A stretch of DNA of 64,000 nt from Vicinamibacterales bacterium (GTDB lineage Bacteria > Acidobacteriota > Vicinamibacteria > Vicinamibacterales > CAVVIG01). Positions 32,629 to 38,554 of this stretch are shown here, in pieces. How positions within the stretch are numbered: position 1 is the first letter of the stretch; each line of letters opens with the position of its first letter. The position numbers and the translations under genes were made by a program. The stretch is from the NCBI GenBank assembly GCA_035939575.1, contig DASZFS010000049.1, forward strand, positions 1,518-65,517, in the 5' to 3' direction. The notes beneath the pieces are model-generated. The model made no database searches. It saw nothing but the letters and a program-made list of their open reading frames with translations, and was not told the origin of the DNA.

Positions 32629-33990
32629 TTACCTGACGAGCAGCGTCTTCAGCGTCGTCTTCGAGCCGCAGCGCTCGAACCAGTCGATCCCCTCGCTGAC
32701 CAGATCGAACTTCAACGTGTAGCGCCCGGCCTGGCCGGGCGCGGCGAGGTCGATCGCCACGTCGGCGCTCGATCCCGGGTGGAGCGCTGCGGGCAGCCAC
32801 GCCCGCGCGTAGTCGCGGTCGAGCAGCTCGCCGTCCGGCGCGCAGAGTTGGGCCCCCAGGCGAACCAGCCGGCGCCCGTAGGTTGCCTGCGCCGGAAAGG
32901 CGCGCGTCGAGAGATTATGGACACGCGTCCGCACGTGGAGCGGGCGGCCGGCGCGCGCGATCAGCGGGACGCCGGGCACCAACGTGCGCACGTCGATGCG
33001 CGCGCTGGGCGTCGCGCCCGGAATGGCGTTGCCGAGGTTGTTGTCGTCCCACACCTCGTGCCGGATCGCCTCGAGATCCGGGGAGCCCGGAACGAAGCGC
33101 CGCGAATAGGCATCTTCGGGATGATCCGTCAGCTCCCAGCAGAGGCGATCGACGCCCGCCTCCGCCGCCAGCTCACGCGCCCGCGTCATCTCGGCGTCAC
33201 TGTCGTTCCACTTGAAGAGGATGTAGCGCCAGTTGAGAAACGGGAGGTCGCGGCCCGATCTGCGCTTCTCGTCGGCCATCGCGCGCAGGGTGGCGAGCGC
33301 GACGTCGAAGCGGCCGCGCCGCCGGTACAACGCGTAGCTCTCCGCGGTCGCGCCGTCCAGTGAGAAGGTGACCTCGTCGATCCCGGAGTGCACCAGCCGG
33401 CGCGCCTGCGGATCGGAGAGCGCCAGGCCGTTGGTGCTGGTGTAGAGGTAGATGTGGGGAAAGCGCGACTTGATGTACTCGCACATCTCCACGGCGCGCT
33501 TGTGCAGGAACGCCTCGCCGTAGTTGAAGAAGTCGATGCGCACGAGCGATGGACCCGCTTCGTCCACGACGCGGCAGAAGAGATCGAAGTCGAGCATGCC
33601 GGCCTGCCGTGTCCTGGTGATGCCGGTTTCCGGCGCGCAGCAGGCCTCCGCGCACGAGATATTGCAGGCCGCCGTGCACTCGATGTACATGCGCGACGGG
33701 AGGGGGCCGGCGTCGAGCGCGCGCGCGGCGGGACTCTCGTCCTTCTTGAGGGGGAGCTTCAGGGGGCAGTCGCCGCAGAACCTCGAGCCGCCGGTGTTCA
33801 GGTCCTGGCGCAGCCCGGAGACGACCGGACCTGTCCAGACGTCGTGCACCGACGCCGCCCGGACGTCACCGAGAACGCGATGCCCGTAGGGATCCGCGCA
33901 CCCGCACACGATCCTCCCGTCGCAGAGCATGACCAGCGTGCTCCACGGCCATGAGCACTGGAATCGCGTCGCCAGGAAATTCAGAGACAT
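32629..33990 (-). CDS. radical SAM protein with N-terminal SPASM-like Cys cluster and C-terminal Ig-like domain
   Basis: Core motifs: ECTAACNISCAEACC (Cys cluster), NYGEAFLH (GGE-like), YTSTNG and TFSLDG. The N-terminal CDGRIVCGC...LGDV...VWTG...CGDCPLK resembles a SPASM/twitch half-domain. The C-terminal ~120 aa (GRYTLKFDLVSEGIDWFE) is beta-sandwich-like. Confidence 0.7.
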   Translation of the reverse strand: MSLNFLATRFQCSWPWSTLVMLCDGRIVCGCADPYGHRVLGDVRAASVHDVWTGPVVSGLRQDLNTGGSRFCGDCPLKLPLKKDESPAARALDAGPLPSRMYIECTAACNISCAEACCAPETGITRTRQAGMLDFDLFCRVVDEAGPSLVRIDFFNYGEAFLHKRAVEMCEYIKSRFPHIYLYTSTNGLALSDPQARRLVHSGIDEVTFSLDGATAESYALYRRRGRFDVALATLRAMADEKRRSGRDLPFLNWRYILFKWNDSDAEMTRARELAAEAGVDRLCWELTDHPEDAYSRRFVPGSPDLEAIRHEVWDDNNLGNAIPGATPSARIDVRTLVPGVPLIARAGRPLHVRTRVHNLSTRAFPAQATYGRRLVRLGAQLCAPDGELLDRDYARAWLPAALHPGSSADVAIDLAAPGQAGRYTLKFDLVSEGIDWFERCGSKTTLKTLLVR

Positions 33991-33998
33991 TCATTTCT

Positions 33999-34265
33999 TC
34001 ATTTCTTCGTGAGCTTCTTCATGTACGCCTCGAGCTTGTCGTTCTCGTATTTCACCGTGCTCAGAAACAGGCTCTCGGCGAGATAGGTCCGCCGCTCCTG
34101 ATCGTCCATCTGGTCGATCAGGTGGTGAATCTCCTTCACCATGTCGTCGAACGAGCGCTCGAGCTCGCGCCTGGCGGTCACCTCCTGGTAGAGCGCTTCC
34201 ATCACGGAAAGCAGGTCCCCGTCGAGCGAGATCGGCGCGCCGCTGGTGGTTTTGATGGTGCGCAT
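33999..34265 (-). CDS. hypothetical 88-aa helical acidic/basic protein
   Basis: Its ATG is 1 nt after the STAS stop and its stop is 8 nt before the rSAM ATG. It is predicted helical (ELERSFDDMVKEIHHLIDQMDDQERRTYLAE) and has no Cys. No family recognised. Confidence 0.5.
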   Translation of the reverse strand: MRTIKTTSGAPISLDGDLLSVMEALYQEVTARRELERSFDDMVKEIHHLIDQMDDQERRTYLAESLFLSTVKYENDKLEAYMKKLTKK

Positions 34266-34266
34266 C

Positions 34267-34608
34267 TTAGGCCCCGAAGCTCTTGACCGCGCTCGGTTCG
34301 TCCGCGTGTATCTCGATGAAATTCTGCGCGCCGGTCATCGTCAACATCGTCTCGACGCGCTTCTGAACACCCGACAGCTTCAGGTGCCCGCCGGCCGTGT
34401 GGACCTGGCGGTACAGGTCCATGAGACAGCCGATCGTGGCGCTGTCGACGTAGGTGACCGGCGTCATGTCGATGAGGATCTCGTGCTGTCCCGAGGCGAC
34501 GAGGCCGCCGACGGCGCTCGAGAAATCACCCAGGATTGGATACATCAGGCGCGTTTCTCCCACACGGACGATTGAGACGCCGCCCCGTTGTTCGGTTTTC
34601 ACATTCAT
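34267..34608 (-). CDS. STAS-domain anti-sigma-factor antagonist-like protein
   Basis: 113 aa from ATG 34608 (MNVKTEQRGGVSIVRV...). It has a SpoIIAA/RsbV-like layout with the conserved phospho-site context YVDSATIG. The start overlaps the sigma gene stop by 1 nt. Confidence 0.8.
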   Translation of the reverse strand: MNVKTEQRGGVSIVRVGETRLMYPILGDFSSAVGGLVASGQHEILIDMTPVTYVDSATIGCLMDLYRQVHTAGGHLKLSGVQKRVETMLTMTGAQNFIEIHADEPSAVKSFGA

Positions 34609-35225
34609 CAGTAGGCTCCCGTGCGTTTGATGACCGCGCCGGTCGGGCTGTACTCGTCGCCGCGCAGCTTCCGAATCTGCCGGGCGAGCTCGGTGCGTCC
34701 GCGGTTGATGCGCGACTTGACGGTGCCCTCGGGCAGGCGCAACCGGTCCGCGATCTCCTGGTATGACAGCTCCTGAATGTCGCGCAGGAGCACGGCCGTC
34801 CGCAGCGTCTCGGGCAGCGCCGCCAGCGCCTGCCGGAGCAGGAGGACGCGGTCGCGCTGCTCGAGCGCCGCCACCGGGCCGGCTTCGGCGGCGGCCGGCG
34901 CCAGTTCGCCGGCGTCGACGTCGCGGTCGATGGTCTCGCGCTCCTTGCGGACGCTGCGGTAGTGATCGATGCACAGGTTGCGGCTGATGCTGATCAGCCA
35001 CGTCTGAAAGTTCGCGCGCCGGTCGAAGGTGTCGAGCGACTTGAAGATCTTCAGGAAGATATCCTGCGTGAGGTCTTCTGCCTCGTCGTGTTTGCCGACG
35101 AACTTGTAAGCGACGTTGAACACCTTGCGCCAGTACTGCCTGACGATCTGCTCCCAGGCGAGCTGATCGCCGGTGAGACAGCGTTGAATGAGCGACTCGA
35201 TGACGTCCGGCGAATCCGACGGCAT
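34608..35225 (-). CDS. ECF-type sigma-70 family sigma factor
   Basis: Region 2 (EDLTQDIFLKIFKSLDTFDRRANFQTWLISISRNLCIDHYR) and region 4 (SYQEIADRLRLPEGTVKSRINRGRTELA) are present. ATG 35225 is preferred over GTG 35252. Confidence 0.85.
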   Translation of the reverse strand: MPSDSPDVIESLIQRCLTGDQLAWEQIVRQYWRKVFNVAYKFVGKHDEAEDLTQDIFLKIFKSLDTFDRRANFQTWLISISRNLCIDHYRSVRKERETIDRDVDAGELAPAAAEAGPVAALEQRDRVLLLRQALAALPETLRTAVLLRDIQELSYQEIADRLRLPEGTVKSRINRGRTELARQIRKLRGDEYSPTGAVIKRTGAY

Positions 35226-35253
35226 GAAGGATTGAGTAGAATAGCGTATCACG

Positions 35254-36504
35254 TTGCTACACGCATCAGGCTTCTGGCGAAGATCTCACGAGCTCGTCTG
35301 CGACGGCGTGCCCCTGGCGCCAATCGCCGCGGCGGAGGGCACGCCGCTGTATGTCTACAGCGCGGAGCTGCTCCGCGAGCGCTATCGCGATCTCGATGCT
35401 GCGTTCGCGGGCTATCCACACGCGATTCACTACGCGCTCAAGGCGAACTCCACGCTCGCCCTGGCGCGCGTGCTTCGCGCGCTCGGCAGCGCCGCCGACG
35501 CGAACTCGGTGTGGGAGATCGAGGTCGCCCGCCGCGCGGGATTCGCGCCACACGAGATCGTCTTCACCGGCGTCGGCAAGTCGCCCGCCGAGCTCGAGTG
35601 CGCGCTCGCCATGGACGTGAAGGCGATCAACGTCGAATCGGCCGGCGAGCTGGCGCGCGTCGAGGCCATTGCCGCCCGGATGCATCGCGTGGCCCGCGTG
35701 GCGGTCCGTGTGAACCCGGACATCGACGCACGGAGCCATCCCCATATCTCCACGGGCCTCAAGATCAACAAGTTCGGCGTGCCGCTCGAGACGGCGCGGG
35801 CGCTCGTCGCATCGGTGGCGGATCGTCCGGCGTTGAACCTGGTTGCGATCCACGTGCATGTGGGATCGCAAGTGACCAGCCTGGAACCGCTCCGCCGCGC
35901 TGCCGCGTTCGCCGCGACGCTGAGCCGCGAGCTCGCCGACCGTGGCGCGGCGCTCGAGTACATCGACCTGGGCGGCGGCCTGGGCGTCTCCTACGACGGA
36001 TCGCCGGTCCCGACGCCGGCCGAGTACGTCAGGGCGCTGATAGACGAAGTCCGGGCCACCTCGCTGCCGATCGTGCTCGAGCCCGGCCGAACGCTGGTGG
36101 CTCCGGCGGGCGTGCTGCTGGCGCGGGTCGTGGACGTGAAGCCGCGAAACGGGGTGAGCGACTTCGCGATCCTCGACGCCGGCATGACCGAGCTGATGCG
36201 CCCCGCCTTGTACGGCGCCTATCACGAGATCGAGCCGGTGGCGCCACGTGCCGGTGCGGCGCGGCAGTACGAGATCGTCGGCCCGGTCTGCGAGAGCAGC
36301 GACGTGCTGGGCCGCGACCGCACGCTCGCGCCGCTCGAAGTCGGGGATCTGCTGGCGATCCGCGACGCCGGCGCCTATGGTGCGGCGATGGCGTCCAACT
36401 ACAACCGTCGACCGCTGCCGGCGGAAGTGCTGGTGGACGCGGGCGCCTGGCGCGTGATCCGTCGCCGGCAGACCGTCGACGACATGCTCGAGTTGGAGTC
36501 ATGA
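35254..36504 (+). CDS. lysA: diaminopimelate decarboxylase
   Basis: GTPLYVYS, the PLP-Lys context YALKANS, HVHVGSQ, DLGGGLG, EPGR and CESSD motifs are present. TTG start as listed. Confidence 0.93.
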   Translation: MLHASGFWRRSHELVCDGVPLAPIAAAEGTPLYVYSAELLRERYRDLDAAFAGYPHAIHYALKANSTLALARVLRALGSAADANSVWEIEVARRAGFAPHEIVFTGVGKSPAELECALAMDVKAINVESAGELARVEAIAARMHRVARVAVRVNPDIDARSHPHISTGLKINKFGVPLETARALVASVADRPALNLVAIHVHVGSQVTSLEPLRRAAAFAATLSRELADRGAALEYIDLGGGLGVSYDGSPVPTPAEYVRALIDEVRATSLPIVLEPGRTLVAPAGVLLARVVDVKPRNGVSDFAILDAGMTELMRPALYGAYHEIEPVAPRAGAARQYEIVGPVCESSDVLGRDRTLAPLEVGDLLAIRDAGAYGAAMASNYNRRPLPAEVLVDAGAWRVIRRRQTVDDMLELES

Positions 36505-37168: not shown

Positions 37169-38554
37169 ATGGACGCGACGCAATTCGCCGCAATCTGGAT
37201 CGGCGTCACGCTGATCGGCGCCGGGGCGCTGGCGGTGGCTGCCTGGGTGCTGCGGGGGCGGCGCGACGGTCTGGTCCTGCTGTCGCTCGGCGCCTGCTGC
37301 GTGCTGTACGGCCTTCGATTGCTCGCATTTCAGCCGCCGGTTCGGGCCGCGCTCGGCGGCAACCTGCGGGGCTGGCGGTACTTTCTCCAGTTTGCGACGT
37401 ACGCCATCAACGTGCCCGCGATGCTGTTCTTCGTCGGCGTGCTCGGAGCCGGCTGGCGGCGTACGCTGCACGGGGTCGTCGCCGGCCAGGCCTTGTACGC
37501 CGCGGCGGCGATCGCCATCGATCTGGCCGCCGGGCGTCCTGGCGCGGCGAACGGACCGAACAGCGCGATCGTGCTCCTCGGCTTTGCAATCGGTGTCGCG
37601 AATTTCGTCTATCGCTACCGCCGGGGCCAGCGGAGCACGCTCTTGACCGATCCGGTCGTGATGGTCGGCGCGGTGGTGTTCCTGATCTTCGTCGCCAACG
37701 AGAACCTGGGGCCCCTGGTCGCCCCGGATCTCAATCTGGAACCGCTGGGTGTGTTGGTGTTCATGCTGTGTCTGGGGTACGCGGTCGTTCGATCGGTCGT
37801 CCGGAACGAGGCGGAATTCGTGAGCGTGCAGCGTGAGCTCGACACCGCCCGGCGCATTCAATCGTCGCTGCTTCCGCGGAACATGCCGTCGGTTGCCGGC
37901 ATCGACCTGGCCGTGCGCTATGTACCCATGACGGCCGTCGCGGGCGATTTCTACGATGTCATTCAGGTGGGTCCCACCGCCGTCGGCGTGCTGGTCGCTG
38001 ACGTGTCCGGCCACGGCATTCCGGCGGCCCTCGTCGCATCGATGGTGAAGGTCGCGTTTGGGGCGCAGTCAGCCCACGCGGCCGATCCCGCGGCCGTCCT
38101 CTCATCGATGAATCGGATTCTCTGTCGTCATCTCGAGCATGCGTACGTGACGGCCGTGTATGCGGTCATCGATGCCGCCGGGCGCGGGATCACGCTCGCG
38201 CGCGCCGGGCATCCGCCGCCGCTCCTCCAGCGCGTCGGGGAGCCGATTCAGAGGATCGACGATGCCGGCGGTCTGATTCTCGGCTTCGTTCAGGAGGCCG
38301 GCTACACCAACACGTGCATTCACGGACTCCGGAGCGGCGATCGATTGCTCCTGTACACCGACGGTGTTCTCGAAGCACGCGATCGCACGGGGCAGTTCTT
38401 CGACGAGGAACGGACGGCTCGCTGGCTGTCCACGAATCAGGGATCGAGTGCCGACGAGGTTGCTCAGGCCGCGCTGGTGGATCTCACGCGGTGGAGCGGC
38501 GCCGCCCGGTTCGACGACGACGTGACGTTCGTGCTGGTCGAAACCACAGGGTAG
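37169..38554 (+). CDS. membrane-anchored SpoIIE/PP2C-family (RsbU-like) serine phosphatase
   Basis: About 7 N-terminal hydrophobic spans. These are followed by ARRIQSSLLP, GDFYDV, VADVSGHGIPAAL, LLLYTDGV and DDVTFVLV, which are typical SpoIIE-domain motifs. Confidence 0.85.
   Translation: MDATQFAAIWIGVTLIGAGALAVAAWVLRGRRDGLVLLSLGACCVLYGLRLLAFQPPVRAALGGNLRGWRYFLQFATYAINVPAMLFFVGVLGAGWRRTLHGVVAGQALYAAAAIAIDLAAGRPGAANGPNSAIVLLGFAIGVANFVYRYRRGQRSTLLTDPVVMVGAVVFLIFVANENLGPLVAPDLNLEPLGVLVFMLCLGYAVVRSVVRNEAEFVSVQRELDTARRIQSSLLPRNMPSVAGIDLAVRYVPMTAVAGDFYDVIQVGPTAVGVLVADVSGHGIPAALVASMVKVAFGAQSAHAADPAAVLSSMNRILCRHLEHAYVTAVYAVIDAAGRGITLARAGHPPPLLQRVGEPIQRIDDAGGLILGFVQEAGYTNTCIHGLRSGDRLLLYTDGVLEARDRTGQFFDEERTARWLSTNQGSSADEVAQAALVDLTRWSGAARFDDDVTFVLVETTG

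Follow-up and report, generated by a model that had tools for sequence, protein, structure and literature searches.

A candidate partner switch with a kinase-less anti-sigma factor for an ECF sigma factor in Vicinamibacterales

On the minus strand of contig C49 of a Vicinamibacterales bacterium (Acidobacteriota), within a stretch of 64,000 nucleotides (nt) that was analysed as a whole and is called the window here, four genes are lined up almost without spacing, and the first three of them may encode a partner switch for an extracytoplasmic function (ECF) sigma factor. The first gene codes for the ECF-type sigma factor itself (34608..35225, minus strand; 205 amino acids (aa) from a conserved ATG, with the maximal open reading frame from a GTG reaching 35252), the second for a single-domain, SpoIIAA/RsbV-like STAS protein (34267..34608, minus strand; 113 aa) with the Ser of its motif YVDSATIG at the phosphorylation position, and the third for an acidic protein of an undescribed family (33999..34265, minus strand; 88 aa), named p88 in the following, which is a candidate for a kinase-less anti-sigma factor. 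These three are referred to as the trio, and they are followed by the gene of a radical-SAM enzyme (32629..33990, minus strand; 453 aa), which begins with a SPASM/twitch-like Cys domain and has an Ig-like domain at its C-terminus. The stop codon of the sigma gene and the start codon of the STAS gene have one base in common (TGATG, a 1-nt overlap), one nucleotide lies between the STAS stop and the p88 start (TAA-G-ATG), and 8 nt separate the p88 stop from the start of the radical-SAM gene (TGA-AGAAATGA-ATG). The flanks are housekeeping genes, uvrA and lpxC on one side and lysA, tmk, rsfS, nadD and obg on the other.

The four minus-strand genes and their junctions are the same as in a preliminary description of this DNA, which had also pointed out that neither an RsbW/SpoIIAB-type kinase nor a recognisable anti-sigma factor is present. 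This holds: an RsbW-type HATPase_c_2 domain has no match on contig C49, the contig has no zinc-finger anti-sigma factor, and there is no zf-HC2 or RsbW-type gene in the locus. Also in the rest of the genome no homologues were found of the zf-HC2 and B-box proteins that are partners of this sigma family in other Acidobacteriota, which bears on the question, raised in the same description, of whether a canonical anti-sigma factor is encoded elsewhere, although homology cannot exclude one.

The assignment of the sigma factor to the ECF group (group 4) follows from its possessing sigma-2 and sigma-4 domains only, without region 3 or region 1.1. Pfam recognises Sigma70_r2 (1.2e-20, residues 36-102), r4_2 (2.1e-17, residues 138-189) and Sigma70_ECF, and the Pfam scan gave no r3 match. 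The NCBIfam superfamily TIGR02937 is matched with 117 bits (cut-off 42.9) and none of the NCBIfam equivalog cut-offs is reached, the best being SigW with 132 bits versus 209. The start at the ATG at 35225, which had been proposed before, is conserved in 79 aligned loci. The next closest sigma factor of the same genome is 34% identical, and the STAS-linked copy is the only one of its family there. As the sigma gene and the divergent lysA (TTG at 35254) are merely 28 nt apart (35226-35253), each of the two promoters must lie inside the coding sequence of the other gene. A scan of the operon for promoters and terminators gave nothing over background. In relatives with a longer spacer between the two genes, a sigma-70-like motif (TTGACA-N18-TATCAT) is found ahead of the sigma gene, which suggests constitutive rather than autoregulated, ECF-type transcription of the sigma factor.

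The STAS domain (PF01740, 3.5e-15) covers residues 3-106 of the 113 residues, STAS_2 is matched with 2.4e-10, and the score for the anti-sigma factor antagonist family TIGR00377 is, with 52.0 bits, slightly below the cut-off of 53.45. In an AlphaFold2 (AF2) model the STAS part has the alternating beta/alpha arrangement of a single STAS domain at a predicted local distance difference test (pLDDT) of 92-98. The Ser follows an Asp at the start of helix 2, which by sequence is the position of the SpoIIAA-type phosphorylation site, and of 97 STAS homologues, those from distant classes included, at least 90% keep the Asp of YVDSATIG and at least 90% its Ser. The Ser context that had been pointed out for this protein is indeed present.

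In contrast to its two neighbours, whose families are easily recognised, p88 stays below threshold for every family of Pfam, NCBIfam and PHROG, as the preliminary description had supposed for this small helical protein, and its divergent relatives gave no match in Pfam or PHROGs either. A profile search of the PDB by sequence gave no meaningful match. In the confident AF2 model (pLDDT 87.8, from an 18-row alignment), residues 2-5 and 11-14 form a beta-hairpin and three helices (18-33, 39-51 and 55-87) come after it. A Foldseek search of the PDB with this model gave nothing of significance (best E-value 1.9), and no anti-sigma structure was among its hits. The protein is acidic (17 Asp/Glu versus 14 Lys/Arg), has no Cys and is conserved over its full length, most strongly in the stretch ESLFLNxVxYEN of the last helix. 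With its 88 aa and no HATPase match it differs from the RsbW/SpoIIAB kinases, which are GHKL proteins of about 140 aa with HATPase_c_2; with no zf-HC2 or RskA match and no Cys it does not resemble class I anti-sigma factors of the zf-HC2/RsrA/RseA kind, whose four-helix domain often carries an HxxxCxxC zinc site; and none of 18 family members scanned at E <= 0.01 had a Pfam match to FlgM or NepR. Because the searches by sequence, profile and fold were all empty, p88 is placed outside the RsbW, zf-HC2, FlgM and NepR families. Small anti-sigma factors are usually acidic and mostly helical, and p88 is so, too. The strand-helix pattern at its N-terminus had made a DNA binder of the ribbon-helix-helix or AbrB-like kind conceivable, and this idea was rejected, Foldseek giving no match to such folds and the protein being acidic.

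The family is large, with 7641 clusters at 90% identity from metagenomes. At 50% identity the clusters number 276, and 217 GTDB species have a relative. The few names that have been given to its members by the sources are inconsistent and look spurious. Many matches of more than 88 aa come from loci in long-read metagenome-assembled genomes, where p88 is fused by frameshifts to the STAS protein or the radical-SAM enzyme, probably by assembly errors, and no true domain fusion remained, every longer match being a frameshift or fragment artefact. One protein of 149 aa on a metagenome contig of 740 nt (P0001) is a head-to-tail partial duplication of p88.

The order and the spacing of sigma, STAS and p88 genes are identical in every one of the 80 related loci, as far as the contigs extend, and a recurrence of this extent is far beyond chance. 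Whether the gene order is kept anywhere else had been named beforehand as decisive for a functional relation, and for the trio it is kept throughout. In Vicinamibacterales, p88 is a single-copy gene in 232 of 251 genomes. The mean protein distances within the trio (0.23-0.28) compare with 0.17-0.21 for lpxC and uvrA and with 0.43 for lysA, so that the trio evolves at about the slow pace of lpxC and uvrA, and lysA is faster.

How the three genes depend on one another can be judged from natural losses, for which the same 251 genomes were surveyed and the 19 without p88 were inspected. The sigma ortholog is absent in 17 of these, and merely fragments of it are present in the other two (G459 and G515, the latter a fragmented assembly). 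In nine p88-less genomes lysA is directly beside lpxC and the whole trio is thus cleanly absent, and in another one (G538) a sigma remnant and a fragment of the radical-SAM gene are kept. Remnants of sigma, STAS and p88 that are all decayed occur in G608 and G598, which are counted among the 232 by very weak p88 matches, and in G437 sigma and p88 are both present, p88 being frameshifted. Neither an intact sigma gene without p88 nor p88 without the sigma gene was found among the 251 genomes of the order. The sigma factor and p88 are lost together and therefore depend on each other. The STAS protein behaves differently: in G122 and G593 it is intact and alone, with its YVDSA motif and the same upstream sequence, and sigma and p88 are gone on either side, and the STAS protein therefore must have at least one other partner. 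These lone STAS genes lie between lysA and lpxC (L165, G122:C17, 1115-1459; L169, G593:C32, about 1415-1750) in two genera of Vicinamibacterales and are roughly 70% identical as estimated by eye, and they seem to be under selection without sigma and p88.

The radical-SAM gene does not share this conservation. The enzyme has a Radical_SAM domain (Pfam, 3.4e-09), an N-terminal SPASM domain (6.1e-06, residues 12-76) and an Ig-like stretch (357-433), and its cluster motif is C-x3-C-x3-C-x3-CC and not CX3CX2C. Its gene follows p88 in about 50 of the 80 related loci (about 60%), and otherwise lpxC or unrelated genes are next to p88, which in these roughly 30 loci is 77-90% identical. In G598 the radical-SAM gene is intact beside the decayed trio and is therefore independent of it. 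It is thus best regarded as an optional, locally attached passenger of the operon that does not depend on the trio, and the functional unit as being the trio and not the four genes. The enzyme had been suggested to be the regulated output of the system, and this suggestion is not supported, as the gene is missing from about a third of the loci and outlives the trio in G598.

Likewise, a membrane protein of the SpoIIE/PP2C type (37169-38554; Pfam, 1.4e-48), about 2 kb from the sigma operon, had been described as an RsbU-like phosphatase, and its role as a dedicated input is not supported: of 100 other loci, a single one has a PP2C gene close to the trio, and the phosphatase therefore is not a conserved neighbour. 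In that one locus (L046, 6352-8595, from RIFCSPLOWO2_12_FULL_65_11), a PP2C-domain protein is encoded in the position after p88 that is held here by the radical-SAM gene.

Beyond the order, p88 was followed in 401 evenly sampled Acidobacteriota genomes. It is present in 58 of them, always as a single copy: in 35 of the 37 sampled members of the order, in the two remaining members of the class, and also in several further families. In 20 distant loci that were inspected (p88 identity 42-52%), the STAS gene is directly upstream of p88 in every case, and this universal adjacency points to a direct partnership of the STAS protein and p88. The sigma gene adjoins the pair in merely 10 of the 20 loci, which shows that the pair has no intrinsic tie to this sigma factor. 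Where the sigma gene is not adjacent, the pair is found beside a GAF-GGDEF cyclase (G012), upstream of a TPR protein, or next to an HDOD hybrid histidine kinase or a sigma-54 response regulator. At the locus with the cyclase (L134, G012:C7, 4401-6282), the gene of the GAF-GGDEF diguanylate cyclase ends 23 nt ahead of the STAS gene, and p88 overlaps the STAS gene by 4 nt.

In genomes in which the STAS-p88 pair is not linked to the sigma gene, the closest relatives of the sigma factor (47-51% identity) are encoded elsewhere and are followed by a zf-HC2 anti-sigma factor and/or a B-box/LiaF-TM protein and then by DUF4097 proteins. Such clusters of sigma, zf-HC2, B-box zinc-finger/LiaF-TM, small transmembrane and DUF4097 'toastrack' proteins (L139-L148, e.g. 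L143, 3343-5395, and L147, 5217-8596) look like an envelope-stress module, and the sigma factors in them, the closest relatives of the one studied here (44-51% identity), are probably under ordinary membrane-anchored regulation. The Vicinamibacterales differ from this form in having none of those partners and in having STAS and p88 genes directly after the sigma gene, and a phmmer search found no relatives of the zf-HC2 and B-box proteins at the ten distant loci with a linked sigma gene either. Three genomes possess both a STAS-linked and a zf-HC2-linked sigma copy. In a sigma tree, which is unresolved and has long branches, the two contexts are not separated, and the sigma factors are therefore treated as one family with lineage-specific partner genes. 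The tightest evolutionary bond is that between STAS and p88, and in Vicinamibacterales this pair sits where an anti-sigma gene normally is.

If the STAS protein is phosphorylated, the enzymes would act in trans, and the genome offers candidates. There are three STAS-like reading frames, the one in the trio, a classical one with DSAGLG and one that resembles MlaB and belongs to an Mla operon, and thus only two non-Mla STAS proteins versus at least eight SpoIIE/PP2C phosphatases and one orphan RsbW-like kinase. The kinase (G000 C343:1064-1621) is a stand-alone HATPase_c_2 protein (84.9 bits) with an N-terminal extension of 60 aa, is encoded beside an inositol monophosphatase gene and apart from all STAS and sigma genes, and is 55-71% identical across the order. 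Relatives of it occur in 359 of the 401 genomes of the phylum, including such without the trio as G122, and the kinase is therefore available in trans but not specific to sigma, STAS and p88. With this distribution, its co-occurrence with p88 is uninformative and was discarded as evidence.

The arrangement is best read as a partner switch in which p88 is an anti-sigma factor without kinase activity that is pulled off the sigma factor by the dephosphorylated STAS protein, with the kinase and the phosphatases encoded elsewhere, and from sequences and analogy we consider this reading about evenly poised between right and wrong. In such a switch p88 would hold the ECF sigma factor inactive, the STAS protein with its conserved Ser unphosphorylated would bind p88 and thereby set the sigma factor free, and the phosphorylation of the STAS protein would be set in trans, the candidates being the lone RsbW-like kinase and the SpoIIE/PP2C phosphatases, including the one 2 kb away. 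The radical-SAM gene would merely be attached. We infer who binds whom, that p88 acts negatively and that the STAS protein is phosphorylated. The preliminary description had proposed a partner switch with p88 as its minimal anti-sigma factor, and the strict conservation of the trio, the joint loss or decay of sigma and p88 and the lack of a canonical anti-sigma factor lend indirect support to this core of the proposal; its other part, with the radical-SAM enzyme as output, is not supported.

Known systems supply parallels for each element of this switch. In Pseudomonas aeruginosa, the STAS protein HsbA in its dephosphorylated form binds FlgM, which is the anti-sigma factor but not the kinase of the system, and HsbR supplies both the kinase and the phosphatase activity (PMC5085249; PMC8256260). 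The phosphorylatable single-domain STAS protein, the small non-kinase anti-sigma factor as proposed here and the placement of kinase and phosphatase on another protein are all like in the HptB-HsbR-HsbA-FlgM system, and the GGDEF cyclase upstream of the STAS-p88 locus in G012 recalls HsbD-HsbA of Pseudomonas. The differences are that the sigma factor is an ECF sigma factor and not sigma-28, that p88 is folded and has no Pfam FlgM match, that sigma, STAS and candidate anti-sigma genes are translationally coupled in one operon, and that no HsbR-like PP2C-kinase gene is linked. With the RsbV-RsbW-sigmaB and SpoIIAA-SpoIIAB-sigmaF switches of Firmicutes the trio shares the STAS protein with a conserved Ser beside its presumed sigma target and the availability of PP2C phosphatases, but there is no GHKL kinase in the operon and p88 with its 88 aa cannot be one, the sigma factor belongs to group 4 and not to group 3, and the gene order is sigma-STAS-p88 instead of STAS-kinase-sigma. 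That an ECF sigma factor can be controlled by a tiny helical anti-sigma factor is known from the PhyR-NepR-sigmaEcfG (ECF15) system of the general stress response in Alphaproteobacteria (PMC4814048; PMC7826278). The trio would resemble it in combining an ECF sigma factor with a very small, cytoplasmic, helical and non-enzymatic anti-sigma factor and a phosphorylation-controlled antagonist, yet this antagonist is a STAS domain and not a sigma-mimic fused to a receiver, and p88 has no similarity to NepR. The known controls of ECF sigma factors comprise membrane and zinc anti-sigma factors, C-terminal extensions, Ser/Thr kinases, two-component systems and PhyR-NepR, and the paper on ECF reclassification names ECF15 (PhyR) as the partner-switching ECF group (PMC7826278). 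Searching its text brought up no antagonist of the STAS type.

Several observations weigh against p88 as a STAS-controlled anti-sigma factor. The contacts of p88 with the sigma factor or the STAS protein are predictions, and p88 is unlike any solved anti-sigma factor. A distance-matrix test of the co-evolution of sigma, STAS and p88 (corrected mirror-tree) was without signal, its partial correlations of 0.14-0.29 being no better than those of housekeeping controls. A natural in-frame read-through of STAS and p88 (L126, with the TAG read as Gly), modelled by AF2 as a single chain, reached a pLDDT of 87 and a predicted template modelling score (pTM) of just 0.61, and no confident fixed interface is seen in this model, which was built from 9 paired and about 90 unpaired rows and judged without predicted aligned errors or coordinates. 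Half of the distant STAS-p88 pairs have no adjacent sigma gene, the nearest sigma relative having its own zf-HC2 partner there, and the sigma tree fails to split STAS-linked from zf-HC2-linked sigma factors. Finally, the joint loss of sigma and p88 would fit a positive cofactor of the sigma factor equally well.

The alternative that survives best, though it is unlikely, is that the STAS protein or a STAS-p88 heterocomplex holds the sigma factor and p88 is an accessory subunit or adaptor that tunes the STAS protein. Reviews mention STAS-only proteins with unknown direct targets that 'may include sigma factors' (PMC8256260). The STAS gene directly follows the sigma gene with a 1-nt overlap, and STAS and p88 genes adjoin without exception (20/20 distant and 80/80 close loci) but the sigma gene does not always adjoin them, which would agree with such a complex, but in G122 and G593 the STAS gene has stayed intact after the loss of sigma and p88, and the fate of the sigma factor therefore tracks p88 and not the STAS protein. 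No STAS protein is known to bind an ECF sigma factor directly, and a literature search brought up none.

Rather improbable is a second alternative, in which p88 is a positive accessory factor that serves the stability of the sigma factor, its binding to core RNA polymerase or promoter opening, and in which the STAS protein sequesters and releases p88. The joint loss of sigma and p88 is just as compatible with this, p88 has a fold unlike that of any anti-sigma factor, and the sigma-70-like promoter of some relatives, if it leads to constitutive synthesis of the sigma factor, would call for some post-translational control. Nevertheless, the characterised STAS switches on sigma factors all act via an inhibitor (PMC8256260), the acidic p88 gives no hint of DNA or polymerase binding, and the sigma family has ordinary anti-sigma factors in other lineages, so that an inhibitor is the part that is expected and missing here.

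It is less probable again that the orphan RsbW-like kinase is the real anti-sigma factor, binding the sigma factor and phosphorylating the STAS protein, and that p88 has an unrelated role with the STAS protein. A stand-alone HATPase_c_2 protein that is well conserved across the order does exist, but as it is found also in genomes without the trio, its distribution does not follow that of the sigma factor, and there would be no reason for p88 to vanish with the sigma factor while the STAS protein stays. That p88 is a substrate, precursor peptide or chaperone of the radical-SAM enzyme, with the sigma factor driving this biosynthetic pair, is hardly credible and was rejected on distribution, for in spite of the position of p88 8 nt upstream of the enzyme gene, which is the usual place of a precursor peptide, and of SPASM-type Cys motifs in the enzyme, p88 and the enzyme do not co-occur like a precursor and its maturase (about 30 of 80 loci and distant STAS-p88 pairs lack the enzyme, and in G598 it is intact beside a decayed p88), and p88 has no Cys, a confident globular model and conservation over its whole length.

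For the reading of p88 as a kinase-less anti-sigma factor under STAS control, a wider form can be considered as well, which appears somewhat less probable than the switch itself: p88, a folded protein without an enzymatic domain, would found a new class of anti-sigma factors, and STAS and p88 would be an ancient, portable switch of two proteins in Acidobacteriota that has replaced the membrane zf-HC2 anti-sigma factor in Vicinamibacterales and serves other outputs elsewhere, such as a GGDEF cyclase, a TPR protein or hybrid kinases. ECF sigma factors are among the main signalling devices of bacteria, and a STAS switch with a kinase-free anti-sigma factor would, if true, be a new type of ECF control that links these sigma factors to PP2C/STAS signalling, and no partner switch that is STAS-driven and kinase-less would have been found for an ECF sigma factor before. 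As the p88 family is without a family assignment, its annotation at the family level depends on the answer. The question can be tested directly, given cultured relatives such as Luteitalea and the variants that arose by natural loss, and with the trio being near-universal in Vicinamibacterales, the switch would concern an abundant and little-studied order of soil bacteria.

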